From positions 96,001 through 160,000 of IMG/VR virus record IMGVR_UViG_3300037067_011302: DNA of 64,000 bases; one strand, given 5' to 3'. Position 1 is the first letter of the stretch; each line of letters opens with the position of its first letter. Positions 4,575 to 23,069 of the stretch are shown piece by piece. Under the pieces are notes generated by a model. It had not been told where the DNA came from, made no database searches, and was given only the letters and a program-made list of their open reading frames with translations. Both the position numbers and the translations under genes were made by a program. Origin of the DNA: a virus (lineage: Duplodnaviria > Caudoviricetes).

Positions 4575-5969
4575 TTAACCTCTCATGCGACCGACGACCA
4601 TCATTCTGACTCGATTGTCAACATCGTCCACCATTTTGTGAAGGTACTTTTTGTCAATGAGGCGGGCGACAGCTAATCGAACAATGGAACTCTCATCGTG
4701 CATCATTTCAGGGAGATATTTGGGATCAATGCGATCAACAACACTATTTCGAACCCTGTCACTCTCATCGTGCATCATCATGGGGAGGTACGACTTATCA
4801 ATCATAAAGGCAACCTCAGCACGAACGAACTTGTCAGGATCATTCATCATCCTTGGAAGATATGAACGATCAATTCGTTGTGCAACAATTTCACGTATTG
4901 CAGCATCCTCATCATCAATCATTAAAGGAACGTATTTTTGATTAATCAAACGAACGGCACGTTCACGTACGTCTCGATTTGCATTCTTTGCCACATGAGG
5001 AATGTGTGAAGGATCAATCCGTTCAAATACGATTGAATACACATCAAACGAGTCATCATTCGTCATCTGAGGTAAGAATTCAACGTCAATATTTTTTGCA
5101 ACTACGTGCCGAATTATGATCCTATCATGATGAACGAATCTCACTAAGAATGGTTTCGCAGCATCGCACTCTAAGATAGATTTCAACATAAAGACATCAT
5201 CTTCGTACAATTTTAGCGCCTGTTCGACATCTTTTTCTGTTGCAATGTTATTCTTGATCTTTGCGAGCATGCTCATCTCTCGCTTCGGAGCGTCTTGCTC
5301 GACGATCTTCAATAGATCCTTCAGTTCATCAGGAACTTCGTCAAGTTGAACATCCTCTGCATCGAAGATGTCAACCTCTAGTATGCTGTTGTCCACGTCT
5401 CGTTGTGCAGCGAATGCAACCTTGTAAAGATGATTTGTCTTCGGTAACGTCTTTGAGAGTGCAAAATAGAACACGACATTTGCACCCGTGTACCGTTCGA
5501 AGTATGAGTGTTCCTTCATCGTGATGCACCACTTGGTGCCTGAACCGTATAATTGTGAAGCGCCCCTATTTTTGATGTGGACAAGTTCGTAGTCGTTGTC
5601 CTCACCCATCTTCTCAACGCCAGACTCCTTCGTTGCCTTTCGTTCTTGTGTCTTAGTGGGTGTGATCGACTTCAGCTCATCCTCAAGTTCCTTCAACGTC
5701 TTGTACGCGTTGATGTCCCTGTTCTTGAACTTAGGTCCATTCTTGTGGAAGAATTCAATGGTCGGAATCAAGTCATTGATACTTGCTCCCATTGACAATT
5801 GCTTCACTCCCCACAACAAGTACTTCTGTGAACCCGACGGATCCGATGAAACTAACTCATCGATCTCCTTCTCGAGTTCAGGATACTTTTTCTTCGCGTC
5901 AGAGACGCGGTCCTCGAGCAGCAGAACTTCATGGATCAGACGACGTAGCGTTACGAGGACGATCTTCAT
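4575..5969 (-). CDS. HEAT/LRV-like repeat protein with an N-terminal 'LRRLIHE' leader and a 'GTKWCIT' domain
   Basis: 464 aa; the C-terminal part is ~24-aa repeats (YLPxMMxDxxxxVRxxVAxxID). Confidence 0.75.
   Translation of the reverse strand: MKIVLVTLRRLIHEVLLLEDRVSDAKKKYPELEKEIDELVSSDPSGSQKYLLWGVKQLSMGASINDLIPTIEFFHKNGPKFKNRDINAYKTLKELEDELKSITPTKTQERKATKESGVEKMGEDNDYELVHIKNRGASQLYGSGTKWCITMKEHSYFERYTGANVVFYFALSKTLPKTNHLYKVAFAAQRDVDNSILEVDIFDAEDVQLDEVPDELKDLLKIVEQDAPKREMSMLAKIKNNIATEKDVEQALKLYEDDVFMLKSILECDAAKPFLVRFVHHDRIIIRHVVAKNIDVEFLPQMTNDDSFDVYSIVFERIDPSHIPHVAKNANRDVRERAVRLINQKYVPLMIDDEDAAIREIVAQRIDRSYLPRMMNDPDKFVRAEVAFMIDKSYLPMMMHDESDRVRNSVVDRIDPKYLPEMMHDESSIVRLAVARLIDKKYLHKMVDDVDNRVRMMVVGRMRG
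4580..5150 (-). repeat. Coding tandem repeat, ~72-nt/24-aa HEAT-like units (about 8)
   Basis: Recurring LPxMxxD...VR...ID units in the translation; the DNA motif actctcatcgtgcatcat recurs 72 nt apart. Confidence 0.8.
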
Positions 5970-6818: not shown

Positions 6819-8765
6819 TCACCGTGACCTCTTGATGTCCTTCCTGACGGTCCTAGACGGTTTCAGCAGCTTCTTGTTCTTCGACGGCTCACCGACGGTC
6901 GTCCTATCATCGATCGAGACGTTTATGCGACCGTCACGTTGGTTGTCGAGGTTGATCACCTGCACAACGTACGAACCGACGTCCTGCTTCGTCGACACGA
7001 CCTTGACAGTCCGACCATCACCGTCAACGACAGAATAGAAATCAGGATTGAAGTACAACTTCGCGCGGCGCGATGATGAACCCGACGTCCTGATGGTGTC
7101 AACGAACGCATCAACGTTGATGTACATGTTTGGGTACGGCATCGGGGCACCGCTGTGACTGACCAACGTCCTCTTCAACTTATTTGAAAATTGGTCGAAC
7201 CACACCTCAAATTGTTCGGAATAGTTTGACGTGAATCCGTGAGCATCGATTGCAACGACTGCGTAGATGTATTTCGATTCGCTGGCTTTGAAATCATCGT
7301 CATAATAGAACGTATACGGAGTCGACGTCTTCTCAACTAATTCGGGCATCATCGTCTCACGCGAGGGTTGTGGCACGTCTGAGTCGTTGAAATCAAATGC
7401 CTTGATGAGCTCAAACGGACTCTCAACGTCCTTCCTACGAAAGACCTGAAATTGCTTGATGTCCCGCTGCGAATTTGGAGGAAATGCCCAGTGAATCATC
7501 AGACTACCGTGTGCGTTGACATCGAACGATGCTCCTGCTATCTGATTTCCTTCCAATAACGTAGAATTGATGCGTTCATAATCCCACGTAAAATTGAAGT
7601 CTGCAGGTGGAGGAGGTGCGATGTGTTCTTCAGTCACAACGTACGTCTTGTTTGACGGTCGTGAGCTGATCAACAACTTCAAGAATGCCAACGTTCCTGA
7701 GTCATCGTCTATCGCCGGAAGCACGAAGTGCGCAATCGCTCTGATCGCATACGCATACCTCGAACCGTACTTGACGTTGAAGTCAAGCGTGTGAAGTGTC
7801 TTCGGATTATCGATGACGATCGACGGGTGTGACTTCACTGTTCCATCATCAAAAATTTCAACCTTGTCGACGATGTACCCAACGATCTCTGGAACGTTGT
7901 CATTCGACGTAATGTTGCTCGGCATCACTCCGACGTGCTTGACAAACGTCTTGTAGTCTAACTCTGAGATTGTCTGCCTCCTCGATAGTGCTCTTCGTTG
8001 AAGTTTGTCAGCCGACGTACTGAGTGTGCCGACGTCAGACGCAAACGGTGAGTGAGGATCAACGATCGTGTCATTGATGATGTCGTTCACAAATCTGCTG
8101 CTGATCTGCACATTCACCGCAGCGTCCTTCTCCTCACGCAGTCTATCGGCAATGACCTGTACTCCTTCATTCTTGAAGAAACGTGCACCACTCGATTTGT
8201 CGAGCTGTGAAAGAGCGCCGTTCAAGAACGCCGGATTGATTGATTTTGGCGTCAAAGAATTCAACCTACTCGAGGCTTTGTGCGCACTGACATCTGAATC
8301 AATCACGTCTGTCGAACTAGCCTCACGCACGGTCAACGAGCCGGAGACAAATTGGTGTAGCTTGTCGTCCAATTCACCATCGTGAAAGTTGACGGCAACA
8401 TAATCGTCAGACGAAAACGTGTCCTCAGTGAGCACTTTGTCTAGGTTGTCACCGATCAATGATCCATATTGAACGCTACGAGGCAACGAGACATTTCGCT
8501 GTCGTGCTTCTGAAAATCTATGTTCAGACAAGACGGTTGCTTCCCAATTGAGGCTGACATACCTCGGAACGCGGGTCGACGCGTACTGGATGAAGTCTGA
8601 ATCGTACTCATCGGTACGCCGTGTTATCTCGCTCTGTGGCACGATTCCAACATCTGACGTGCACTCATCATGAACAAAGTAATTGTAGACGAACTTACCG
8701 ACGAACGACTTGACCTCAGGAACGTCGACGGCATAGACAAGACGTGAAGGCAGTGACGTTGACAT
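6819..8765 (-). CDS. Hypothetical protein with FN3-like beta segments (putative structural)
   Basis: 648 aa; 'YAYAIRAI' and 'YIYAVVAIDAHGFTSNYS' resemble FN3 C-terminal strands; coupled to its neighbours. Confidence 0.55.
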   Translation of the reverse strand: MSTSLPSRLVYAVDVPEVKSFVGKFVYNYFVHDECTSDVGIVPQSEITRRTDEYDSDFIQYASTRVPRYVSLNWEATVLSEHRFSEARQRNVSLPRSVQYGSLIGDNLDKVLTEDTFSSDDYVAVNFHDGELDDKLHQFVSGSLTVREASSTDVIDSDVSAHKASSRLNSLTPKSINPAFLNGALSQLDKSSGARFFKNEGVQVIADRLREEKDAAVNVQISSRFVNDIINDTIVDPHSPFASDVGTLSTSADKLQRRALSRRQTISELDYKTFVKHVGVMPSNITSNDNVPEIVGYIVDKVEIFDDGTVKSHPSIVIDNPKTLHTLDFNVKYGSRYAYAIRAIAHFVLPAIDDDSGTLAFLKLLISSRPSNKTYVVTEEHIAPPPPADFNFTWDYERINSTLLEGNQIAGASFDVNAHGSLMIHWAFPPNSQRDIKQFQVFRRKDVESPFELIKAFDFNDSDVPQPSRETMMPELVEKTSTPYTFYYDDDFKASESKYIYAVVAIDAHGFTSNYSEQFEVWFDQFSNKLKRTLVSHSGAPMPYPNMYINVDAFVDTIRTSGSSSRRAKLYFNPDFYSVVDGDGRTVKVVSTKQDVGSYVVQVINLDNQRDGRINVSIDDRTTVGEPSKNKKLLKPSRTVRKDIKRSR

Positions 8766-11700
8766 CAGATCGACTCCTTACCATACGTTTCGATTGACAC
8801 GAAGTACTTCTCAAATGTCATGTCACCCTCTCCTCGATCACGATCGCGGTACCTGTACGAATTCACAGTCGAGTCAAGGCCTCCTCTTATGACCTTCACC
8901 AATGTATTCATCGATACGTCACTTGCCCTCTTGATCTCTGATGAATTGACGCGACCAACTGCGGTGACGTCACCCTGTTTGATCAACTGTTCTAGCACGC
9001 GTTTGCCGTGAGGCGTTCTAGTCGTCATCGCGTAGTCTATTTCAAATTCATCCGGATCAATGATGACGTTGAACACCCTGTCAAACTTCTTTGGTGTCAA
9101 GATGCCCTTGAGCACGTTCTTTGGATCAGCAAATGGGATGATCATTCTTGACATTCCATCGATCACTCGCATTCCGTGCACGACAGCCTCAGCAGAACCA
9201 GCATTGATTCCTGAGATGCTCGTTGCCAACGTATCAACGCTCGGGCGAGCAATATTGGTGTCAACTATCGACTTCGCAATCGATTCTTTTGATGAATCCG
9301 GCGCACCGTACACGGGCATCGTTGACGTAAACAACGCTCCATTCGTCACCTTTGAAAACGATGATGCACCAATCGAACGTTCATTGACAGTTGACAGGAA
9401 CTTCTCGGCCAACGACTTTACAGTCGTGGGATCGATCAATTTCGCAATCGATGAAAGCGTGAACCTGTGCTCTCCAACGTTCAGGCCCGTCATGACCTTG
9501 ACGTATAGTTCCAACAGATAACTGATCACGTGATTTTGTGCCAACTCACGTTTCTCATCATCGCTCAAGAATGAATACGACGCGTCATCAAATGCTGCGA
9601 CGTTGCCCCTTCCGACGGCTCCTGTCGAAGCAACGTATCGACTCACTGTCCCACGGCCGACGCCAAAATCACGCATTGGTGCAGACGCAATGACGTCATC
9701 AATGTGTGAATTGCCCGACAATTGATCGTATTCATCATCATTACGCACAGGAAATCTTGACATCTCGAACAAAAACTTTCGTGGTTTGTACACGATGTCA
9801 CTGTTCTGAACGTCGATCTTATACACAACAACGTTGACAACATCGTCCTGTCTCTGTAAGTCAGACGTGTTTCTCACATCTTTGAGTTGAAACTTCTGTT
9901 GCAATTTCTTCGTAAAGCCCAGAGGCACGCCGACCGTCAAAATCTTCTTGTTGTAACCTTTCTTTGATGACATTGATTCTGATTTGAAGAATTCAAGAAC
10001 AATGCTCTTCATCTTCGTTGACAACACGCTGTCATCCAACATTTTCACGATGTCATCATTATCAAAGTTGCCATCATAGTCAACGTCTCCGGCCCTAGAA
10101 GCGACGGACGTTAAACTGGCGCGTGCTGACACGTCTCTGATCAACGATGAAGCAATGTATATCTGTTGAACGTTCATCAACATCCCCAATAGGTTAGCGT
10201 CGACGATTGAAGCGATTGAGTCAATCGTCTCTCGGTGAACTTTTGATTCAAGAGAATCAATCATGTTCTTTGTCGCTGAAGACAATTTCTGCAGTGCATT
10301 CATCACGACGTACGTTGACTGTTGTGCCAGTGACACCTCACGTTCAATGCGCGTGAGCATGTCGTTCACCTGTTCGTAGTGTGTGATGTTCGTTCGTGCA
10401 ATGTTGAACATCATTGCACCTGTCATTGCACCGCCAACCGTCGTGTTCAATGAAACAGACTCAAACGTTTGATTTCCATACTTTGCACACGTCGTCACCA
10501 ACGCATCAAACGTCATCATCATCACGATCGTGTCAACACATCCGCTGTACCTCGTCCTGTCATTCAGCAACGAACCTGACTTGGAGAACGTTGAACTGAT
10601 TGCCTTCATGTACGACGTAATGAACTTTGACACGTACGTTGATCCCTGCAACATCGTTTTGATGTCATCCAACGAAGGTGACAACGTCGTCATCGGATTA
10701 TATGAACCGGCAGCGTCAAAGAAGGGACTCATCGTTGTCTTCAACGATCCAAAAGGCAACTTTGATGACGTTATCTTGAGTTCTGCAACGATCAATTCAA
10801 TGACGTGTTGTAACGCTTGTTGGACGACTGACAAAGTCATGTCAGGTGGAGCAAGCGTATTGAACAGCGATGTTCCGGTGTCAGATGCCATCGTGCACAA
10901 GACGAAGTAGACAAACAACAACGATCGAAGGCGTAGATTGTCATTTGAAAGCGCCAACACTGCACACATTCCATCAACGTTGACCTGTTGGTTCGTGATG
11001 CCCGTCTTTTCATCTAGAATTGGTTGAATCACGGCCTTCATCAACAACAACGGATCGCTAAGTGTTTCAGAGAACTTGCCAGCAGCCTTGTCTGTCGAAT
11101 CAAACGTTTGTGCCGACAATAAATTTAGGCCGCCGACCAAGGTACCAAACTGCTTGTGCATCGTCGTCAGTGAGACGTACAGTTCCTTCAACCTAGACGT
11201 GTCAAAACGACCTGCATCAAAGTTCATCACCGAATCAACGTAGTATGCAGAACCTGGCGTCAACGTTCCAACGCTCGACTCAATGAATTGTTTTTCGAAC
11301 GTCAACACGACTGAACTCGTCGTCGGTCGAACCTGTGCAACTGACGCTAGCGATCCAGCGTTCGTCAGTGGAACATCATCGACAGACCTTCCCACGTGTC
11401 CGATCACCTTGTCAAACAACTCAACGTTCCCATTCTGTACGACTTGGTACTTGAAGTCGTCCAACAACGTCCGCTGCACGTCAGACAACGACAGGCCTCT
11501 CGAATAGCGATATTCCTTTGAAATTTGATTGACGAGCGCCGCAACCTTGGTCTCTGACGTTTGAAATGACGTATCAGCATACAATTCATTCCATGCCTTC
11601 TCCACCTGTTGAAGCAACGTGTTTGCATTCGATGAATTCAAAGAACTAATCGTGCCGATAGTGGGAACGTCAGTGAACTTTCCCTCCAACGAAAAACGTC

Positions 11701-12769
11701 GATCATCATTCGTAACAATCGTTGATGCATTGTCACTATTTTTTTGACGTGCGGTACCGAAGTCAACCAATCCAAGCGAATGGTACCTGTACAGGTCCTT
11801 CATCTCTGACAACAACTGTAGCCACACCTTCGACGACATGAAGGTTGCATTCACCGTCGATGGATCGTACCCAAATTTCACGAGAACGTCAGAAAATGAA
11901 TACTTTGTCGGAAGAGTCCTCTTTGCAAAGCTCAACAGACGATTGACAGAGTTCGTCGTGTACTGTTTGCTGAACGCAAGCGTAAATCCTTGGATGAACG
12001 TCTCCACTTGAACGTCATACATTACGTCATGTAGGTCCAAACGCTTCTTCAATTGTTCAAGTCCCTGAACGAGCGCGAACAATGCATCAACGACATCCCG
12101 ATATTTAGCGATCGTCATCTCGAATTCAGACGACTTACTCTTCAACAAATTCCTCAAATCAGCGTGTCGAAATGACAAATTTTTCACGAGTGAACGAACG
12201 TCATCATGTCTGAGCGATCTGACATTAAGTTGCGTCAGCATGAACCTACCAGCAGACGTCAACGTATAGTCGTCACCGTCGTGTGATGACTGTGTGACGC
12301 CGTCATCCTTCCTGTACAACGGAAGAAAGTTCGTGAGCATGACAATCTCTGGACGTTCATTTGAAATACCTGTCAACTTTTCAAACGGTTCCAACGCTCG
12401 AGCCGACAATAAGTTGTCATCAATGTCGTCAATTTCGAGTAGATCAATGTCTGCGCGTGGACCATAGCTAGTCACGATCGAATTTACGTTCCTCTGCATT
12501 GACGTCAACGTGGGCTCACTACCGTTGACGATTGAATCAACAATCGAAGAGATCGTCGTAATTGAAGATGCACCCAGTGACGTAATGTTTGAAACAGGAA
12601 TCGGAACGAGAGCTGCCGGAGATGCTGATGATGCATTTGAAATTGAAGGACTTGCCTGTGATTGAACGGCGGCAGAAATAGTCCCAACGATCGATTGCAC
12701 CTGCGGGTTACCGAGCGATGCTGCATTCTTTGTTAGTTTGAACGTTCGTGACATTTTAGCCTCAAACAA
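8765..12769 (-). CDS. Large hypothetical protein (1334 aa; the start may be 12754)
   Basis: Long ORF overlapping both neighbours; no motif recognised. Confidence 0.7.
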   Translation of the reverse strand: MFEAKMSRTFKLTKNAASLGNPQVQSIVGTISAAVQSQASPSISNASSASPAALVPIPVSNITSLGASSITTISSIVDSIVNGSEPTLTSMQRNVNSIVTSYGPRADIDLLEIDDIDDNLLSARALEPFEKLTGISNERPEIVMLTNFLPLYRKDDGVTQSSHDGDDYTLTSAGRFMLTQLNVRSLRHDDVRSLVKNLSFRHADLRNLLKSKSSEFEMTIAKYRDVVDALFALVQGLEQLKKRLDLHDVMYDVQVETFIQGFTLAFSKQYTTNSVNRLLSFAKRTLPTKYSFSDVLVKFGYDPSTVNATFMSSKVWLQLLSEMKDLYRYHSLGLVDFGTARQKNSDNASTIVTNDDRRFSLEGKFTDVPTIGTISSLNSSNANTLLQQVEKAWNELYADTSFQTSETKVAALVNQISKEYRYSRGLSLSDVQRTLLDDFKYQVVQNGNVELFDKVIGHVGRSVDDVPLTNAGSLASVAQVRPTTSSVVLTFEKQFIESSVGTLTPGSAYYVDSVMNFDAGRFDTSRLKELYVSLTTMHKQFGTLVGGLNLLSAQTFDSTDKAAGKFSETLSDPLLLMKAVIQPILDEKTGITNQQVNVDGMCAVLALSNDNLRLRSLLFVYFVLCTMASDTGTSLFNTLAPPDMTLSVVQQALQHVIELIVAELKITSSKLPFGSLKTTMSPFFDAAGSYNPMTTLSPSLDDIKTMLQGSTYVSKFITSYMKAISSTFSKSGSLLNDRTRYSGCVDTIVMMMTFDALVTTCAKYGNQTFESVSLNTTVGGAMTGAMMFNIARTNITHYEQVNDMLTRIEREVSLAQQSTYVVMNALQKLSSATKNMIDSLESKVHRETIDSIASIVDANLLGMLMNVQQIYIASSLIRDVSARASLTSVASRAGDVDYDGNFDNDDIVKMLDDSVLSTKMKSIVLEFFKSESMSSKKGYNKKILTVGVPLGFTKKLQQKFQLKDVRNTSDLQRQDDVVNVVVYKIDVQNSDIVYKPRKFLFEMSRFPVRNDDEYDQLSGNSHIDDVIASAPMRDFGVGRGTVSRYVASTGAVGRGNVAAFDDASYSFLSDDEKRELAQNHVISYLLELYVKVMTGLNVGEHRFTLSSIAKLIDPTTVKSLAEKFLSTVNERSIGASSFSKVTNGALFTSTMPVYGAPDSSKESIAKSIVDTNIARPSVDTLATSISGINAGSAEAVVHGMRVIDGMSRMIIPFADPKNVLKGILTPKKFDRVFNVIIDPDEFEIDYAMTTRTPHGKRVLEQLIKQGDVTAVGRVNSSEIKRASDVSMNTLVKVIRGGLDSTVNSYRYRDRDRGEGDMTFEKYFVSIETYGKESI

Positions 12770-15203
12770 TCACGACGTTTGACGTCGCACCTTCACCGGT
12801 CGAATAATCGTTATAGATCGGCATCACAAAATACCTCAGTGAACCTGAATCTCGTGTGCCCAATTCGTGAATGAACTGACAACCTCCCTCTGAAAATGAG
12901 GAGTGTGCCTTTCCAACAATGAACCTAATTCCATCGACGACTTTCATCACGACAAAGTGATCGCATTCAGTGGTACGCCCAACGACGTTCCATGAAACAA
13001 TATTCGTGCCAACATCAAACTTTGATACATTCGCACTGTCAACATGTGAACGTGCGACTTGTAGCCGTACTTCGATCGATGACACAACGCCAAGTTCACC
13101 GTGTGTCATCTCGTCTTTTGCAAATCTCTTCATTGCACCGTTCCTCGTGACGATCGTTCCCTCGTTGAGGTTAATCGGGTGCATAAACTTTGACGGACTG
13201 AAGACGTATGACTTTTTCGTAATTTCGTCGACACTGCTCTTGATGAACTTATCAAACATCGTCTCAGGTGAACGCATTAGCACTGAAACATCGTACCTGT
13301 ACCTATTCCCACTCACCAGAGGTTCAACTGCATAGTTTGATCGTAGCAACTTGTCAGAAAATCTTGAGACGGTGACAACTCCAAAGTCCTCTCGTAGACC
13401 GGTCGTCATGTTGATTCGGTGCACCTTGTACGCAATCAATCCGCTGAGAAATTCACGTTCCTTTTCAACGTCACCTTGAAATAATTCCATCTGCTGCGAC
13501 GTCGTCAACAATGATTTCAACACATCGTGATGATTCTCTAGGATTGACGAATTAATGGTGAACGATACGTCGTAACCACCGACGTTCGTGACCTCGAGGT
13601 CGGTCAACGATAGTGAGACTTTTCCTGGATTTTGAATGACATATTCAACAGTGTGATGGCCAACCAATTCAACTGAACCACACCTGTAAAATATTTTCGC
13701 GGCATACTCGTACACGTTGTGTTGCTTGACGTTCTTGTCAATCGTAATGATGCTGTCGGCTTCACGTATGCTGTCAGTAATCAACAACACGGTGCCTCCA
13801 ACGTTGCTGTGTGATTTTTCGAACAACGTCAAATTTCTGACACAAAATTCGACTGACACAACGTCAGTCGGTATTTTCGATGCCTCTAACTGAATTCCAC
13901 CATCAACCAACTTTGCCGTCAATGAGAATGATTTGATCCGTTGACCACGTGTAGTGCCGACGACGACGTTCGTGTACTCAGAACCGACGCATCCACTTTT
14001 ACCGATCGGAATGACGCGGTAGATGGTGGCAGAACCCTTGGGAACATCAACGCTGATCATCAACGATGGATCGGATGCTTTCACGTCGTATGAACCAATG
14101 TATGCATACGTCCCATCACCAACCGTTGAACAGTTAATGCGTTTGTAGTATACGTTCACCGCAACTGCTTTCTTGTCAATCTGTTTAATGTCAAGCAGTG
14201 CCTTTGACACAGCGTCTGACTTCAAGACATTCACGATCGGAGGAATCCTAGGTGTATAGAACAATTGCACGTGACGAGCAAGGTCTAGTTGCTTGATCAT
14301 GGTGGCCACTGACGTTCCGTCTGCGCTGTCAATGAGATCAAATTTTACGTTGAACGTTGAATTCGATGAACCGTCGACCGTCCTAGCACTGAACGGAATT
14401 GTAACATCGACAGGAATTGTGAGGTCATCGCACGATTCAGTGACGACAACGTGCGTCATCTCATCGTCAGCCACGTCGTCTGTCAACTTACCCTTCTTTA
14501 CGTCAACAGTCAAGTGTGAATTCAACAATTGCACGCGCGGCGACGTTGAAACTTCTTGAGTGATGCTCGTCCTAGACACGCCCTGTGACGAATCAAATGC
14601 AGTCGCGGCACGTGCATTGAGATTCAACGATGTCGACGGATCGACGTTCTGCCTAACGATCATGTCCTGCATCATTGCCCGTGAACTGACGCTAGAGGAC
14701 ACATACGATGGTGCATCATATTTGAACTCACGCGTCAACAACGGAAGCGTTTCATTCGATCGTTTGACAGACAACGTCGAAACAAGCTTTAGTGATTTTT
14801 TGTTCAACTGGACGATGCTGTCACTCGGAACATTTGCTAGCAATTGACCGACGACTTCGTTGTTCACGAATGACGTGATGCTGCTATCACGTGAGACGAC
14901 GTTGTATGATTCCTGTTGTCTCATTGCGTTGCGAGCATTTGACGTATCAGTCAGAATGTTCGTGATAAATTCATTGGAATCTATCGATCCGAGGTGCGTT
15001 GCCGTCAACATGGGACTCTTCGCGATTGACCTCGTCGACACCGAGACATTCACCGACAACAATTCCGATGAAATCGTTGATCGTTGGTTGACTGAATAGT
15101 GAAATCGAAACGTCGCATTGCCGACATCATCAACGTTCACCAATTGAGCGTAATCGTCATCGATCGTCAACAGACTAGCGCGTTTCTGTAATCGAAAGTA
15201 CAT
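12762..15203 (-). CDS. Hypothetical beta-rich protein (putative structural)
   Basis: 813 aa ORF with Ig/FN3-like strand patterns. Confidence 0.6.
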   Translation of the reverse strand: MYFRLQKRASLLTIDDDYAQLVNVDDVGNATFRFHYSVNQRSTISSELLSVNVSVSTRSIAKSPMLTATHLGSIDSNEFITNILTDTSNARNAMRQQESYNVVSRDSSITSFVNNEVVGQLLANVPSDSIVQLNKKSLKLVSTLSVKRSNETLPLLTREFKYDAPSYVSSSVSSRAMMQDMIVRQNVDPSTSLNLNARAATAFDSSQGVSRTSITQEVSTSPRVQLLNSHLTVDVKKGKLTDDVADDEMTHVVVTESCDDLTIPVDVTIPFSARTVDGSSNSTFNVKFDLIDSADGTSVATMIKQLDLARHVQLFYTPRIPPIVNVLKSDAVSKALLDIKQIDKKAVAVNVYYKRINCSTVGDGTYAYIGSYDVKASDPSLMISVDVPKGSATIYRVIPIGKSGCVGSEYTNVVVGTTRGQRIKSFSLTAKLVDGGIQLEASKIPTDVVSVEFCVRNLTLFEKSHSNVGGTVLLITDSIREADSIITIDKNVKQHNVYEYAAKIFYRCGSVELVGHHTVEYVIQNPGKVSLSLTDLEVTNVGGYDVSFTINSSILENHHDVLKSLLTTSQQMELFQGDVEKEREFLSGLIAYKVHRINMTTGLREDFGVVTVSRFSDKLLRSNYAVEPLVSGNRYRYDVSVLMRSPETMFDKFIKSSVDEITKKSYVFSPSKFMHPINLNEGTIVTRNGAMKRFAKDEMTHGELGVVSSIEVRLQVARSHVDSANVSKFDVGTNIVSWNVVGRTTECDHFVVMKVVDGIRFIVGKAHSSFSEGGCQFIHELGTRDSGSLRYFVMPIYNDYSTGEGATSNVVIV

Positions 15204-15209
15204 GATTCC

Positions 15210-16178
15210 TCACTGGAATACCAACGTAAAGATGTGAACAAATGTGTGCGTGCCGTTACCGTCCAACATGACCTTTCCGACAAAGAACGCATGGCGCGTT
15301 GAACCATTGATGATGTACTTTCCGAACTCAATCACGTCAAGCTTTTTCAATGAATCGTTGTTGATCTCAAAGAACTGAGCAACGAGACGATTGTTACGTG
15401 ACGTAGGATCGAATGAGATCGTCTTACAACACCCGACCCTCTCAAAGTGTGCCAACTCACTCTCCAGTTGTTCACCAGAAAGTGATGACCTTGATTTTCC
15501 CCAAGGCCTGAAATTTCCCAATAGACGTGGTTTAGAGCCTTCAGTAACTTTGTTGATTGGTGGCAAGTACCTAAAGTTGACGAGCCGACTAAGACGAGGA
15601 TCATTGAATAGGCTCTCAACGTCAGTCAAGTTCACCGTCCGCAACGAACTGTCAGGCACCGGTGATGTGTTAGTCATCACAAATGTCAATGAGTCATTCC
15701 CTATGCCGAATCCATCGTCCTCGAAAATCGGATCGTGCGTTCCGATGATCCTGAGGTTTCTGAAGTTGTCAGGAGATGACATCAACAACGATTGTGCAGT
15801 GGACGCAAATTCCTCACCGTTCATGAACGTCATTCCGGTGCTAGAACCCGTCAACACGGTGCCCATCGATTCATCGAACGTGCACTGTACGATCTGACCA
15901 TCGCACACTGAGATTCCTTCAGTGTTCTTGAACGGCAACAATCGTCCAGAATCATCCGCCTCGAACGTCACCTGATCCTGAGGAAGGTGACATGCCTCGA
16001 GGTAAATTCTGGTCGTTGCATCGGCGGAACCACTCACGACGTCCGCTTTGTAATACGTCGCGGAGTCCGTGAATGACACAAACTCAACCTTCAACTTGCC
16101 CGACGCTATCTGTCGTCGACCTTCAAGCGTCACAAGCGTGTCGATCACGCGTTGTTTGTTGTCTAGAATACCACTCAT
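15210..16178 (-). CDS. Putative structural protein
   Basis: N-terminus 'MSGILDNKQRVIDTLVTLEGRRQIA' resembles 5985..6701; ATATTTC motif and AGGA RBS upstream. Confidence 0.6.
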   Translation of the reverse strand: MSGILDNKQRVIDTLVTLEGRRQIASGKLKVEFVSFTDSATYYKADVVSGSADATTRIYLEACHLPQDQVTFEADDSGRLLPFKNTEGISVCDGQIVQCTFDESMGTVLTGSSTGMTFMNGEEFASTAQSLLMSSPDNFRNLRIIGTHDPIFEDDGFGIGNDSLTFVMTNTSPVPDSSLRTVNLTDVESLFNDPRLSRLVNFRYLPPINKVTEGSKPRLLGNFRPWGKSRSSLSGEQLESELAHFERVGCCKTISFDPTSRNNRLVAQFFEINNDSLKKLDVIEFGKYIINGSTRHAFFVGKVMLDGNGTHTFVHIFTLVFQ

Positions 16179-16226: not shown

Positions 16227-17384
16227 TCAAGTGCCGGGCGAAAATGCAATCGGGTAGACGATCGTGACAATTCCACCCTCAGGTTGTGGGAAGCTCAGGC
16301 CGTAGAAGGCCCTCGTCACGCAGGAGACGACGCCGCCGTCCGGAATGTCGCCACCGCCGCTCACGTTGGAGACCGTGCCGTCACGACCGATGACGAAGCG
16401 GACGATCACGCGCCCGGCGAGGCTCGGGTTGTTGCGCAGACCGTTCTCGTAGCAGAGGCGGAAGCGGCCGAAGTTCTGGCGCACGATTCGTTGTATCACT
16501 TCCGGCGGGAGCCTCCCGCTGACGCTCGTGGCACCAATCCTCACTCGTGGAACTGCGATCCTGTGTCCTCCTGACAAACCTGCACGTCCGAACCCAAATC
16601 CTTGACCTGGACCCATACCTGCACCATGACCGATCGTTCCAATCGATCCTAGACCGATTCCTTCACCCTTCCCATTTCCTCCCTCGCCGATACCACTCAA
16701 TCCAAGCCCACCAGCACCGTAGGACTCACCGATGTCGCGACCCCACATTGCTCCATTAGCACTCAACGGGTCACTACCTGAGGCACTCTCAAGACCCCAG
16801 ATGGCCGTTGGTGAGTCGGGGTCAGCACCTGCTCCTGAGTTGAGCAGCCCAATCACACCAAATTCAGCAGCATCGCGGAGAGCACGTTGACGAGCGATGT
16901 GAGGATCGACGTTGTCAGAGGGTCCCTTCACGGCATAACGATTTCCACTGAGATCGCTGTTGACATTCCCCATCGATCCCTCTTCGCCCTTTGCCCGAGT
17001 GCCTGTGCCTCCTTCATGTTCATCACGACCTACGTCAACGACGGCTTCATCCCTTTGCTCAAAATCACGTTCAGAAGAAGAATCAACGAGGTGCTTGATG
17101 AAATAGCGCTGATCTTCAGAAACAACATCATCGCCGATCATCGATGACGGAGGCATGAACATTGCCATCGCCGTGAGAACCATGCAACCAGACGATTTGC
17201 TGTCATTACAATTAAAGTAAAGTGCTTCACCTGATTTTTTTGCCTGTTGTGCAAACCGACGTATGCTAACATCTGGCATCGCATCAAACAACGTTTGTGC
17301 AAATTTCATGCCAGTGTTAATTGCATGCATATCGTTTTTTGCCTCACGTAACACTTCAACAACATATGATTTTAACACATACAT
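16227..17384 (-). CDS. AgmX/PglI C-terminal domain (GltG/TonB-C-like) protein of myxobacterial origin with a phage-type N-terminal leader
   Basis: C-terminal 'SGRLPPEVIQRIVRQNFGRFRLCYENGL..NPSLAGRV.VRFVIGRDG.VS...VVSCV.RAFYGLSFPQPEGGIVTIVYPI.F' and Gly-rich linker 'GTRAKGEEGSMG...GLGLSGIGEGG' resemble Polyangiales GltG-like gliding proteins. Confidence 0.85.
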   Translation of the reverse strand: MYVLKSYVVEVLREAKNDMHAINTGMKFAQTLFDAMPDVSIRRFAQQAKKSGEALYFNCNDSKSSGCMVLTAMAMFMPPSSMIGDDVVSEDQRYFIKHLVDSSSERDFEQRDEAVVDVGRDEHEGGTGTRAKGEEGSMGNVNSDLSGNRYAVKGPSDNVDPHIARQRALRDAAEFGVIGLLNSGAGADPDSPTAIWGLESASGSDPLSANGAMWGRDIGESYGAGGLGLSGIGEGGNGKGEGIGLGSIGTIGHGAGMGPGQGFGFGRAGLSGGHRIAVPRVRIGATSVSGRLPPEVIQRIVRQNFGRFRLCYENGLRNNPSLAGRVIVRFVIGRDGTVSNVSGGGDIPDGGVVSCVTRAFYGLSFPQPEGGIVTIVYPIAFSPGT

Positions 17385-17465: not shown

Positions 17466-17762
17466 CTAACGATCCGCCCAGAAAGAACGTCTTTCCTCTG
17501 CCACTTTACGAACTTTCGGGTCAACGTCATTCAACATTGATTCAACGTGTTGACCAATCCTGAGCACGACCTCATATCGCACGTGGCTATCATCGTCTTC
17601 CATCATCTAAGTGAGGTATTCTTTGTCAATGTGTTGAGCAACAAAACGACGTACTCTTATGCTCTCATCGTTCATCATCTAGGGGGAAGCAGCAGCACGA
17701 TCTTCTAGAAGGACGATCGATTCCCTGATCAGACGTCTCAACACGAAAATACGCATCTTCAT
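17466..17762 (-). pseudogene. Short paralogue of the HEAT-repeat protein 4575..5969, interrupted by two in-frame TAG codons
   Basis: Manual translation: MKMRIFVLRRLIRESIVLLEDRAAASP*MMNDESIRVRRFVAQHIDKEYLT*MMEDDDSHVRYEVVLRIGQHVESMLNDVDPKVRKVAEERRSFWADR*. Confidence 0.75.
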
Positions 17763-17831
17763 AGATGCAATTAGACGTGTAACGACAATGACAGGAAATG
17801 ATGAGATTTAACTACTAAATCTTGTTAGATG

Positions 17832-19241
17832 TCACAGGATCTGTGCCGCCAACGTTGCCAACGTGCTGCGCTCGCCCTTGATCAGGCTGACGTGACCGGC
17901 GATCTGTTGCTCCTTGAAACGTTCCGCCACGTACGTGAGGCCATTCGTGTAAATGTCAACATGGACATTATCGATTTGGGTAATATCGCCGATTAATACA
18001 ACCTTTGATCCCTCACCGACGCGAGTTATGATCGTCTTGATCTCGTGTGTTGACAGATTCTGACACTCGTCAACGATGACGAACGAATTTGGGATCGATC
18101 GACCACGAATGTAGGTCAGTGCCTCAACCTCAATGAGACCCTTCTCCTGGAGCAGTGACAAGTACGTTCCCTCATCGTGGGACGGTTTTTCACCATTGAA
18201 GTCCTTCGACGATTGCTTACGTACCTTCTGAGGTGGACGCTTCGACCCAAACAAGAAGTTCAGGTTGTCCTTGATGGGCGCGATCCACGGGTCCATCTTT
18301 TCGTTCAACGTTCCCGGGAGGAATCCGATGTCCTTTCCCATTGGCTGAACGGGCTTCGTCACGATGAGTCGATCGTACACCGCTCGAGATGAAGTGCCGA
18401 TTCCCTTGACCTGCTCAAGAGCAGCCGCCAACGTGACGCATGTCTTTCCGCACCCTGCTGGACCACCCAACGTGACAAGCTTCACGTCATTGTCAAACAA
18501 CAGCTCGAGCGCGAACGTCTGTTCCTTGTTCCTGGGCTTCAGGCCAAACGCAGACTTGCTCTCTTCGAGTGGAAGCAATGCATTGGCACTCTTCACGTAC
18601 CTCGTGATCGCTGACGATGAAGGCTGACCCTCGGCGACATACTTCAAGATGACGATCTGATTGGGAAACAATCGCGTTTCAAACAATACGTCCGACTCGA
18701 CGGCGATCGTCTTGTTGCCGTAGAACTGCTCGACGACGCTGAGCGGAACCTCGATCGTCGTGACGCCGCGGTAAAAGCTCTGTGGATCGTGAGCAATGCG
18801 CATCTTGAGGTAATCATCGCACTTGATCCCCATGCTGTCGCACTTGATCCTGACGTTGATGTCCTTAGAAACGAGGATCGCCTCTAGGCCACAATCAGGC
18901 TCAAACGTCTGCATGAACGCAATGATCAGATTGTCGACCTTGTTGCTCAACAGATCGGTGGGCAACCTACTATTGAGTTCATTGCCGATCATTGCAACGC
19001 TCAACGTTCCTCCACCCGTCAGCGGCACGCCCTTCTGTAGGCTAAAGCCAGACGTCCTCATCTCATCAAGAGTACGACTGACCTGTCGTGCATTTCGACC
19101 CACGTCATCCATGCGGCTCTTGTGCCTGTCCAATTCCTCGAGGACGACAAGTGGAATGATCACGTCATTGTCTTCAAATGCAAACATTGCATTCGAGTCA
19201 CTGAGAAGCACGTTGGTGTCGAGGACGTATATCTTTTTCAT
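17832..19241 (-). CDS. phoH: PIN-PhoH family protein (PhoH2/YlaK type)
   Basis: N-terminal PIN domain (YVLDTNVLL...VLEELD..K), Walker A GPAGCGKT, 'GFLPG', 'RGRS', 'DECQN', 'GDITQID'. Confidence 0.95.
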   Translation of the reverse strand: MKKIYVLDTNVLLSDSNAMFAFEDNDVIIPLVVLEELDRHKSRMDDVGRNARQVSRTLDEMRTSGFSLQKGVPLTGGGTLSVAMIGNELNSRLPTDLLSNKVDNLIIAFMQTFEPDCGLEAILVSKDINVRIKCDSMGIKCDDYLKMRIAHDPQSFYRGVTTIEVPLSVVEQFYGNKTIAVESDVLFETRLFPNQIVILKYVAEGQPSSSAITRYVKSANALLPLEESKSAFGLKPRNKEQTFALELLFDNDVKLVTLGGPAGCGKTCVTLAAALEQVKGIGTSSRAVYDRLIVTKPVQPMGKDIGFLPGTLNEKMDPWIAPIKDNLNFLFGSKRPPQKVRKQSSKDFNGEKPSHDEGTYLSLLQEKGLIEVEALTYIRGRSIPNSFVIVDECQNLSTHEIKTIITRVGEGSKVVLIGDITQIDNVHVDIYTNGLTYVAERFKEQQIAGHVSLIKGERSTLATLAAQIL

Positions 19242-22243: not shown

Positions 22244-22837
22244 TCATCCAACGATCCGGTCGACGATTCCAAGTTTGATCGCCTCTTCGGCCGAGAAATA
22301 GCGATCCACACCACACCTCATGATCTCCTTGACTGCCTTCAAGGACATCTTCGTCTCAGACGCCAATGCCTGTTCGGCAAGTTCCTGACGACGTCGAATC
22401 TCTTCGGCGGTATTGACAAGTTCAAACACGTTCCCAATTGCACCTGCCGACAGAGGATGAATCATCACTCGTGCCGTCCGACCGATCAACCTCTCACCCT
22501 TCTTGCCGGATGCAAGAATGAGCACGCCTGCTGATAGGATCTTTCCAAATCCAACAGTGTACACTGGCGATGGAAGGAACTTGATGACGTCGTAGAGGTT
22601 GAACATCTCATCGACTGAACCTCCATTCGTTGAGACGACGAGCCTGATGGGATTTTGGTTGATCCTGGACAGTTCAAACAACTGCAGCACGACCATCGAA
22701 ATCATGCGTTCAGTGACATCGCCGTGCAACATGACAACGCGTGAGTCGAGCGACATCATCTGTGGCTGTTGTACCGAATCATCGTAAGACTCGTCAGGAC
22801 AGTTATTTCGAGATTTGTCGACAATCTTCCTACCCAT
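22244..22837 (-). CDS. clpP: ATP-dependent Clp protease proteolytic subunit
   Basis: 'STNGGSV' plus catalytic Ser (ILSAG), His (MIHP) and Asp (DRYFSAEEA..GIVD); start reassigned to ATG 22837. Confidence 0.92.
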   Translation of the reverse strand: MGRKIVDKSRNNCPDESYDDSVQQPQMMSLDSRVVMLHGDVTERMISMVVLQLFELSRINQNPIRLVVSTNGGSVDEMFNLYDVIKFLPSPVYTVGFGKILSAGVLILASGKKGERLIGRTARVMIHPLSAGAIGNVFELVNTAEEIRRRQELAEQALASETKMSLKAVKEIMRCGVDRYFSAEEAIKLGIVDRIVG

Positions 22838-23069
22838 TAGTATCTCCTTGTGACAAAAACACTTTGTTACCTGCGATGACCTTGATAGGATCAGTGAGAG
22901 CACGCATGAGCTCGATGTCCTCAATCTCAAGAGCAAGCAAGTAGATGATCATGATCCTTTGACGTTCCGAAATTTCAAGTGCTGAAATATCACGAACAAG
23001 TTCACGACACAGCGTATTCTCAGCCGCTTGACGTTCCGAATCCAGTTGACCATAGGTCATTGTACTCAT
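22830..23069 (-). CDS. Hypothetical protein
   Basis: 79 aa, overlap-coupled between neighbours. Confidence 0.6.
   Translation of the reverse strand: MSTMTYGQLDSERQAAENTLCRELVRDISALEISERQRIMIIYLLALEIEDIELMRALTDPIKVIAGNKVFLSQGDTNG

Follow-up and report, generated by a model that had tools for sequence, protein, structure and literature searches.

Introduction

GltG (PglI, MXAN_4867) is a TonB/TolA-like linker protein of the Agl-Glt gliding machine of Myxococcus xanthus. In the nomenclature of this bacterium, gltG is the same gene as pglI, and gltJ is the same gene as agmX (PMC3169522). Deletion of gltG abolishes gliding, GltD clusters depend on GltF, GltG and GltH, and AglR interacts with GltG in two-hybrid assays (PMC3169522). 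In an AlphaFold model of the M. xanthus machine (PMC11761067), the transmembrane helix of GltG (residues 330-348) and the adjoining FHA domain bind AglR5QS, and the N-terminal FHA domain binds GltI. On the other side of the helix, residues 428-543, which are disordered alone, wrap into the crevice of GltD, and the domain that resembles the C-terminal domain (CTD) of TonB is placed against the N-terminal domain of GltD, with one of its strands paired to GltF. Here, we analyze a GltG-like open reading frame (ORF) in a 64,000-nucleotide stretch of viral DNA, hereafter called the window, that covers positions 96001-160000 of the 184,219-bp IMG/VR virus record IMGVR_UViG_3300037067_011302. The first-pass annotation of this DNA placed the ORF at 16227-17384; these coordinates are right, and the ORF lies on the minus strand and encodes 385 residues.

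A phage protein homologous to the C-terminal half of GltG

Residues 120-383 of the phage protein match profile positions 402-647 of the 650 positions of the NCBIfam GltG model NF033760, with an E value of 3.5e-38 and 131.6 bits. This score is below the curated whole-protein (equivalog) cutoff of 650 bits, as are those of the full-length orthologues from Sorangium (324 bits) and Polyangium (305 bits), which nonetheless match the model end to end. The C-terminal residues 294-382 cover positions 3-92 of the 92-position model of the AgmX/PglI C-terminal domain (NF033768) at 76.3 bits, with a cutoff of 40, and the Pfam TonB_C family (PF03544) yields 14.2 bits, under its gathering cutoff of 24.6. 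The GltJ (AgmX) model NF033761 is matched through the C-terminal domain alone, at 19.2 bits, and the ZnR/GYF N-terminus of GltJ forms no part of the match. Given these scores for the GltG and GltJ models, the phage protein is of the GltG/PglI type. The first half of the earlier designation 'GltG/AgmX-like' therefore stands, whereas 'AgmX' is a misnomer.

The homologous region starts inside a membrane helix. Residues ~68-385 share 70-76% identity with the C-terminal half of Polyangiaceae GltG. The cellular relatives are FHA-bearing proteins of ~660-674 residues, and identity to them reaches 75% over the C-terminal 82% of the query. Alignment with the full-length cellular proteins places the onset of homology at '...LTAMAMFMPP', in the last third of the host transmembrane helix, and a profile built from 72 full-length host proteins aligns residues 47-384 of the query. 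No FHA domain is detected in the ORF by Pfam or NCBIfam, and the alignment also lacks the cytoplasmic linker and the greater part of the helix. The helix remnant has a Kyte-Doolittle 19-residue maximum of 1.29, compared with 1.7-2.3 in the host helices. The first-pass annotation had taken the protein for the C-terminal (periplasmic) half of a GltG captured from myxobacteria, with only a stub of the membrane helix. The capture is borne out by the NF033760 match and the Polyangiaceae best matches, and the stub by the position of the homology onset and the low hydropathy.

Nearly all of the best 80 genomic matches belong to Polyangiaceae or to Myxococcota metagenome-assembled genomes (MAGs) with coarser labels, and they include Polyangium, Sorangium, Minicystis, Byssovorax and many MAGs. 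The two outliers among these 80 are 1.7-2.1 kb contigs in MAGs of other phyla. The best hits are thus Myxococcota, as the first-pass annotation had expected, with Polyangiaceae on top. The Sorangium cellulosum homologue aligns with the GltG model over its full length. Its upstream neighbors are GltC, a 1280-aa TPR protein (GltD-like) and a GltE-like protein, and downstream of it lies a GltI-like TPR protein of giant size (more than 2151 aa). Judged from this gene content, the donor gene is a true gltG of a glt-type cluster (gltC/GltD-like/GltE-like/GltG/GltI-like). Polyangium jinanense has two GltG-type loci in one genome (L005 and L009), each with ~70-72% identity to the phage protein, and paralogous Glt-like machines therefore exist in the donor family. 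From the captured gene, the host of the ~340-kb jumbo phage that carries it can be assigned to Polyangiaceae, in a clade of uncultured relatives.

Two ages within the host-derived part

The host-derived part of the gene consists of two segments of different composition and divergence that meet at codon ~284/285. In codons 121-283, the GC content at third codon positions (GC3) is 0.27-0.53, and identity to the hosts is 0.70-0.76 for amino acids and 0.65-0.72 for nucleotides. In codons 284-385, by contrast, GC3 is 0.77-0.97, and the corresponding identities are 0.90-0.92 and ~0.82. The proportion of differing synonymous sites (pS) in codons 121-283 is 0.75-0.86 and thus saturated, and the proportion of differing nonsynonymous sites (pN) is ~0.20. 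In codons 284-385, synonymous divergence (dS) to the best hosts is 0.68-0.80, inside the host-versus-host range of 0.35-0.96 for this segment, and nonsynonymous divergence (dN) is 0.07-0.12 for the closest loci.

Phylogenetic trees separate the two segments in the same manner. The phage sequence lies outside all sampled hosts in the middle-segment tree, on an end branch of 0.67. In the tree of the C-terminal segment, it is nested in a clade of 12 uncultured entries, with an end branch of 0.093 and a Shimodaira-Hasegawa-like approximate likelihood ratio support of 97; the nearest entries in this clade are labelled Polyangiaceae, Myxococcales or Deltaproteobacteria. The top phage-host identity in the middle segment (0.76) is about the host-host minimum (0.75). 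Among the best 119 proteins out of 5.8 billion, identity does not exceed 0.76 in the middle segment and rises to 0.91 in the C-terminal domain. Host DNA similarity ends 3-4 nt short of the stop codon, and no host 3' flank is present.

The simplest reading of this mosaic is an old capture and, more recently, conversion of the C-terminal domain by the chromosomal gltG of a host. The converted tract ends within the coding region, and the pattern therefore fits gene conversion against a host gene; both crossovers would lie inside the homologous coding region. On the substitution values, the middle segment is one that was held under purifying selection until its synonymous sites were saturated and its GC3 was low and no longer host-like.

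Sequence constraint and fold

The phage protein selectively preserves the residues that its cellular relatives preserve. Host-invariant residues are kept at 78 of 86 positions (91%) in the middle segment and at 48 of 50 (96%) in the C-terminal domain, and agreement with the host consensus at variable columns is only 38-56%. Codons 121-283 align to the Gly-rich segment of host GltG throughout. An AlphaFold2 prediction from a 65-row alignment gives a confident C-terminal domain, with a predicted local distance difference test score (pLDDT) of ~90-96, a disordered middle segment and three low-confidence N-terminal helices. The middle segment is conserved although it is disordered alone, as has been published for free GltG, and binding to a partner best accounts for this conservation. 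The C-terminal domain (~290-385) adopts the TonB/TolA-CTD fold. It matches the Helicobacter pylori TonB-CTD with a Z score of 8.2 and a root-mean-square deviation (rmsd) of 2.8 Å over 87 residues, and CTDs of TonB, TolA and FusB account for 10 of the top 12 fold matches. The segments of the gene and the neighboring features are listed in Table 1.

Table 1. Segments of the GltG-like gene and features that border its insertion site, in window positions
Feature	Position	Strand	Basis or remark
Whole GltG-C-like ORF	16227..17384	-	385 aa plus stop; in-frame TAA five codons upstream of ATG
Codons 1-67, AT-rich orphan N-terminus, begins MYVLKSYVVEVLRE	17184..17384	-	GC3 0.31, no relatives, three low-confidence helices, pLDDT ~50, weak leader score
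Codons 68-79, C-terminal end of host transmembrane helix (MVLTAMAMFMPP), homology start	17148..17183	-	Alignment, hydropathy
Codons 80-120, post-helix linker, poorly conserved among hosts too	17025..17147	-	Amino acid identity ~0.33-0.40, pN 0.35-0.41
Codons 121-283, old ameliorated Gly-rich segment, counterpart of the GltD-wrapping part of GltG	16536..17024	-	Profile positions 402-~545; PMC11761067
Codons 284-385, young host-like domain of TonB-CTD fold (AgmX/PglI C-terminal domain)	16230..16535	-	GC3, identity, tree, fold
Conserved phage gene, 322 aa, first of the 322-813-1334-648 block; marks insertion site	15210..16178	-	Downstream of the GltG-like gene
PhoH-like gene, upstream border of insertion slot	17832..19241	-	Upstream
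Decayed paralogue of leader + HEAT family, same frame as the GltG-like gene, stops between; marks variable slot	17466..17762	-	Upstream

The phage and the insertion site

The virus record has a GC content of 0.50 and a CheckV completeness of 54%, from which the full genome would measure roughly 340 kb. Upstream of the GltG-like gene, the same strand encodes PhoH, a helicase and a ClpP-type protease, and a T4-type portal with an HNH intein and a split gp21-type Peptidase_S77 prohead protease are found elsewhere in the record. Going by these genes, the source is a T4-type jumbo phage of ~50% GC. A search for a cultured representative of this group of ~50% GC, ~340-kb jumbo phages found none. The strongest GC island other than the GltG-like gene lies outside the window (G000:C1:79595-83881; L087-L089) and is the portal gene with its intein and HNH endonuclease. 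The other GC islands were rejected as extra host captures because the strongest of them is this intein-bearing gene and not host DNA. The Peptidase_S77 prohead protease that adjoins the portal is represented by two matching pieces in one open frame, consistent with an intein. The ClpP-type protease at 22244-22936 had been a candidate prohead protease and was dropped after the gp21-type S77 protease turned up beside the portal.

The GltG-like gene interrupts a conserved gene order. The 322-aa gene on its downstream side belongs to a large viral family with 607 relatives, on contigs of up to 357 kb. In the closest relative (L085), PhoH is followed by an 88-aa ORF and then by 329-, 817-, 1349- and 644-aa homologues of the 322-813-1334-648 block. 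The GltG-like gene is absent from L085 between PhoH and this block, and the DNA that L085 has in common with the window starts only at the 322-aa gene. The gene order of L085 thus identifies the GltG-like gene as a lineage-specific insertion in a variable slot. No relative of the gene was found in other phages in INPHARED (DNA and protein) or IMG/VR (protein and family alignment).

The junctions are present in a second assembly. A 2,156-nt metagenome contig (L082, Ga0172380_10116023) matches window positions 17211-15056 at 99.72% with 6 mismatches, and it therefore represents a separate assembly of a slightly different variant. This contig spans the homology start and the compositional switch inside the gene, and it runs on past the stop codon into the next two phage genes. 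The possibility of a chimeric contig, raised in the first-pass annotation, is thus made unlikely by an independent contig that runs over both junctions. All six differences between the two contigs are nonsynonymous. Five of them (T127P, R140G, L142F, T147K and D149A) are clustered within 23 codons of the 322-aa protein (codons 127-149; window 15733-15800), a region that is not variable across the 322-aa protein family, and the sixth is D346V (16348) in the C-terminal domain of the GltG-like protein.

The surroundings of the slot have several further features. The block of genes for 322, 813, 1334 and 648 aa (window 6819-16178, minus strand) is common to many jumbo-phage contigs of up to 357 kb (L083, L085 and L086). 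Its proteins have no Pfam or PHROG match, and the 813-aa protein has weak Fn3/Ig-like leads only. In more distant relatives, four paralogous ~450-aa genes precede the block. The minus-strand ORF at 17466-17762 is an internally deleted paralogue of a 464-aa leader + HEAT protein (4575-5969, minus strand). It has an intact leader (MKMRIFVLRRLIRES...), and its tail aligns to residues 397-461 of the paralogue with a score of 113, compared with 32.8 +/- 5.1 for shuffled sequences. In-frame TAG codons interrupt this ORF, each followed by ATGATG, and its frame is that of the GltG-like gene; it may be either a pseudogene or a case of TAG read-through. An upstream extension of the GltG-like ORF by TAG recoding was rejected because the window contains no tRNA and a TAA also intervenes. 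An inverted repeat, AGATTTA-n5-TAAATCT (17805-17825, minus strand), is located directly past the PhoH stop codon, upstream of the decayed leader ORF.

The N-terminal 67 residues and a phage leader family

The N-terminal region of the phage protein is unrelated to GltG. Residues 1-67 show no significant similarity to the host family profile, and 94 of 300 shuffled sequences score as well. A host origin of these residues, as a decayed cytoplasmic part or helix, was rejected on this shuffle test, though 'GEALY' at 52-56 resembles 'GAMLY' of the hosts. The AT-rich character that the first-pass annotation ascribed to this part is real, with a GC content of 0.38 and a GC3 of 0.31 over codons 1-67. 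Scored against the codon usage of the phage itself, these codons obtain 0.114, compared with 0.069 for the 5th percentile of in-frame scores and -0.177 for the 95th percentile of off-frame scores, and an open frame over this length of 38% GC DNA has a chance of roughly 1% under base composition. By these measures, the N-terminal 67 codons appear to be translated. A gene caller selected M68 as the start (protein P0002, 318 aa), and no Shine-Dalgarno motif distinguishes the candidate starts.

Searches for relatives of residues 1-67 were negative at every level. The phage has no paralogue of this region, and a word search of 5.8 billion proteins detected no relative. Comparison with 1.84 billion representatives gave one marginal match only (E 5.7e-4), in the interior of a 2501-aa protein, and the equivalent intergenic region of L085 contains no counterpart. 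The three N-terminal helices (pLDDT ~50) produce generic fold matches alone, with Z scores of 4.1 or less.

The phage genome contains a leader family with the motif L[KR]xLIxxVL[RH]E. Start codons are the site of 10 of its 11 motif matches, compared with 0.1 expected in shuffled DNA, and a profile added members. In the form MK...L[KR]RLIxEVL..E, the leader heads several unrelated proteins in the window (5969-, 36388-, 48918- and 63583-), and further leader sites occur in the record (G000) at genome positions 19531+, 47779-, 70679-, 86481+, 176361+, 32756- and 49433-. By analogy with T4, the recurrent leader and the gp21-type protease suggest capsid-targeting sequences. The GltG-like protein has L-R-E at residues 12-14. 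Against a leader profile built without it, however, its N-terminus scores 5.2 bits with an E value of 1.9 and is placed at about rank 24 of 1711 ATG starts. The first-pass annotation described the protein as refitted with a phage leader. This description is not supported in that form: the leader family is real, the match of the GltG-like N-terminus to it is not significant, and its derivation from a phage leader is a hypothesis.

Discussion

We propose that the gene encodes a mimic of the periplasmic half of host GltG that is maintained by the phage and uncoupled from the motor, an explanation to which we give an even chance. The sequence shows that a T4-type jumbo phage took up the 3' half of a Polyangiaceae gltG, with the break inside the transmembrane helix, and that this half was inserted between PhoH and the conserved four-gene block. 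The phage protein retains the parts that are modelled to bind GltD by crevice wrapping and to contact the GltD N-terminal domain and GltF through the CTD, and it has lost the FHA region and helix that bind AglR5QS and GltI. With this set of parts, the mimic would occupy GltD and GltF without transmitting force. It could thereby act in a dominant-negative manner and uncouple the outer-membrane and periplasmic gliding transducer from the motor. Alternatively, this transducer complex may serve the mimic as a place to dock. Through the recent refresh of its CTD, the mimic would stay matched to the partners found in the current host. The opposite role, that of an auxiliary metabolic gene whose product replaces GltG and sustains gliding, was rejected because the motor-binding helix and the FHA domain are absent.

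The first-pass annotation had suggested a soluble, motor-less decoy. The anatomy of the protein, with predicted GltD/GltF binders kept and motor and GltI binders lost, and its strong constraint favor this suggestion, which is plausible. Several observations weigh against the proposed mimic. No signal peptide or full transmembrane helix is recognizable, with the helix judged by Kyte-Doolittle hydropathy, and a 12-residue hydrophobic remnant is all that is left of the helix; the mimic would thus have no evident route to the periplasmic GltD and GltF. A complex prediction for phage residues 115-290 with the C-terminal 760 aa of the L045 GltD gave weak support, with a score of 0.47, compared with 0.00 for the best of 3 controls. 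In the calibration of this score, only 7 of 80 solved complexes had values of 0.60 or less; of 110 mismatched pairs, 2 passed, and both lay in this range. The prediction runs agree in at least 46% of contacts, and the partner pLDDT is at least 44. The contacts of GltG with GltD and GltF are themselves AlphaFold models in M. xanthus and not solved structures. The gene is carried by one phage only, in two near-identical contigs, and phages thus provide no comparative evidence. Finally, GltG-type loci occur in more than one copy in Polyangiaceae, and the mimic could thus be aimed at a Glt-like paralogue of the gliding machine.

This last point leads to an alternative target, such as an Nfs-type spore-coat transporter. 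The mimic would then stop sporulation or a similar process of development or envelope transport, and the host would stay vegetative. Several glt gene copies occur in Myxococcales (PMC3169522), and the two P. jinanense loci resemble the phage protein to the same degree. In this alternative's favor, the contiguous gltC-D-E-G order is also that of nfs operons. The donor-type loci of Sorangium and Polyangium, however, align with the GltG model over its whole length, and the Sorangium locus is followed by the giant GltI-like TPR protein, which Nfs clusters are not known to contain. We regard this alternative as decidedly improbable. Slightly more room can be given, though it too is improbable, to the idea that binding of GltD and GltF alters or freezes an outer-membrane Glt platform (GltA/B/H/K and CglB) that serves this phage or its competitors as a receptor. 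The selected effect would then be the exclusion of further phages and not the arrest of motility. This idea draws on the same anatomy and constraint as the motor-uncoupled mimic, and type IV pili offer a precedent, in that phage proteins (Tip of D3112 and Aqs1 of DMS3) block a surface-motility machine to exclude phages. However, it shares the localization problem of the mimic, and nothing points to the Glt complex as a phage receptor.

The N-terminus allows another route to be considered. MYVLKSYVVEVLRE could be a T4-type capsid-targeting sequence that is cut after L-R-E by the gp21-type protease, and the protein would be packed into the head and ejected with the DNA. At the onset of infection, its GltD/GltF-binding parts would dock the ejection path on the envelope-spanning complex or halt cell movement at once. 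The phage has a T4-type portal and a Peptidase_S77 protease, its genome has a leader family, and the protein has L-R-E at residues 12-14. An N-terminal stretch of 10 residues is enough to target a protein to the T4 capsid; its processing depends on residues 8 and 10, and foreign proteins fused to it reach the host cell (PMC9026906). Against these parallels stand the leader score of the protein, which is not significant, and the frequency with which [LIV]-x-E occurs near an N-terminus by chance. T4 internal proteins, moreover, end up in the cytoplasm and not in the periplasm. Head packaging and its proposed docking or arrest role are, in our view, both unlikely. A composite of the two proposals, in which a capsid-loaded effector with a T4-like leader is refreshed from the host by repeated gene conversion and injected to uncouple the gliding transducer at infection, is a considerably longer shot. 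As for a functionless passenger or an assembly artefact, in which host DNA was picked up by accident or joined by the assembler, the restriction of the gene to one phage lineage and its orphan N-terminus would be expected. The frame is nevertheless unbroken over all 385 codons. Its pN of 0.20 contrasts with saturated pS, and the gene retains 91-96% of the host-invariant residues. In addition, one gene contains two separate host-derived layers, and the second contig (6 single-nucleotide polymorphisms) has the same structure. The junctions are in frame and end at the stop codon. This explanation is largely refuted, and we find it scarcely credible.

If the protein binds GltD and GltF, it would be a natural dominant-negative tool that separates the periplasmic contacts of GltG from motor coupling, and the published AlphaFold model of the bacterial focal adhesion would become directly testable. 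The two-age structure is a clean example of a viral mimic re-homogenized against the host gene, a mechanism that keeps mimicry current and is rarely documented in phages. No relative of the Agl-Glt machine components was found in other phages in INPHARED or IMG/VR, and a 2026 survey of 790 myxophages mentions none.

The phage protein can be compared with four kinds of known systems. It shares with M. xanthus GltG and the Polyangiaceae orthologues a homologous linker, a Gly-rich segment and a TonB-CTD-like domain. Unlike GltG, it lacks the FHA domains and a complete helix and thus the binding sites for AglR5QS and GltI; it also has an unrelated 67-aa N-terminus, lies outside any glt cluster and is a mosaic of two acquisition ages. 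Its CTD has the fold of the TonB and TolA C-terminal domains (H. pylori TonB-CTD, 5lw8; Escherichia coli TolA, 1tol), with Z scores of 8.2-6.3 and rmsd values of 2.3-2.8 Å over 77-93 residues. Domains of this type work by strand pairing with partner peptides. Strand pairing of the GltG CTD is modelled for GltF (PMC11761067). In contrast to TonB and TolA, the phage protein lacks both a membrane anchor and coupling of the ExbBD/TolQR type, and its expected partner is GltD/GltF and not a TonB-dependent transporter. The likeness to the T4 internal proteins (IPI-III and Alt) consists of a T4-type head module, a short N-terminal peptide that ends in [LIV]-x-E and a leader common to unrelated cargo. 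The T4 proteins, however, act in the cytoplasm, and the leader match of the phage protein is not significant. Like Tip and Aqs1, it is a phage protein proposed to disable a host surface-motility machine. Tip and Aqs1 are small, are not host-derived and bind the cytoplasmic PilB ATPase, whereas the phage protein is a captured fragment of the machine itself, predicted to be aimed at periplasmic partners of the gliding motor. Phages are already known to capture host genes and to interfere with the surface motility of their hosts. What appears to be new, as far as the sequence can tell, is a captured fragment of the force-transmitting linker of a gliding motor that is kept as a motor-less mimic and re-homogenized from the host.

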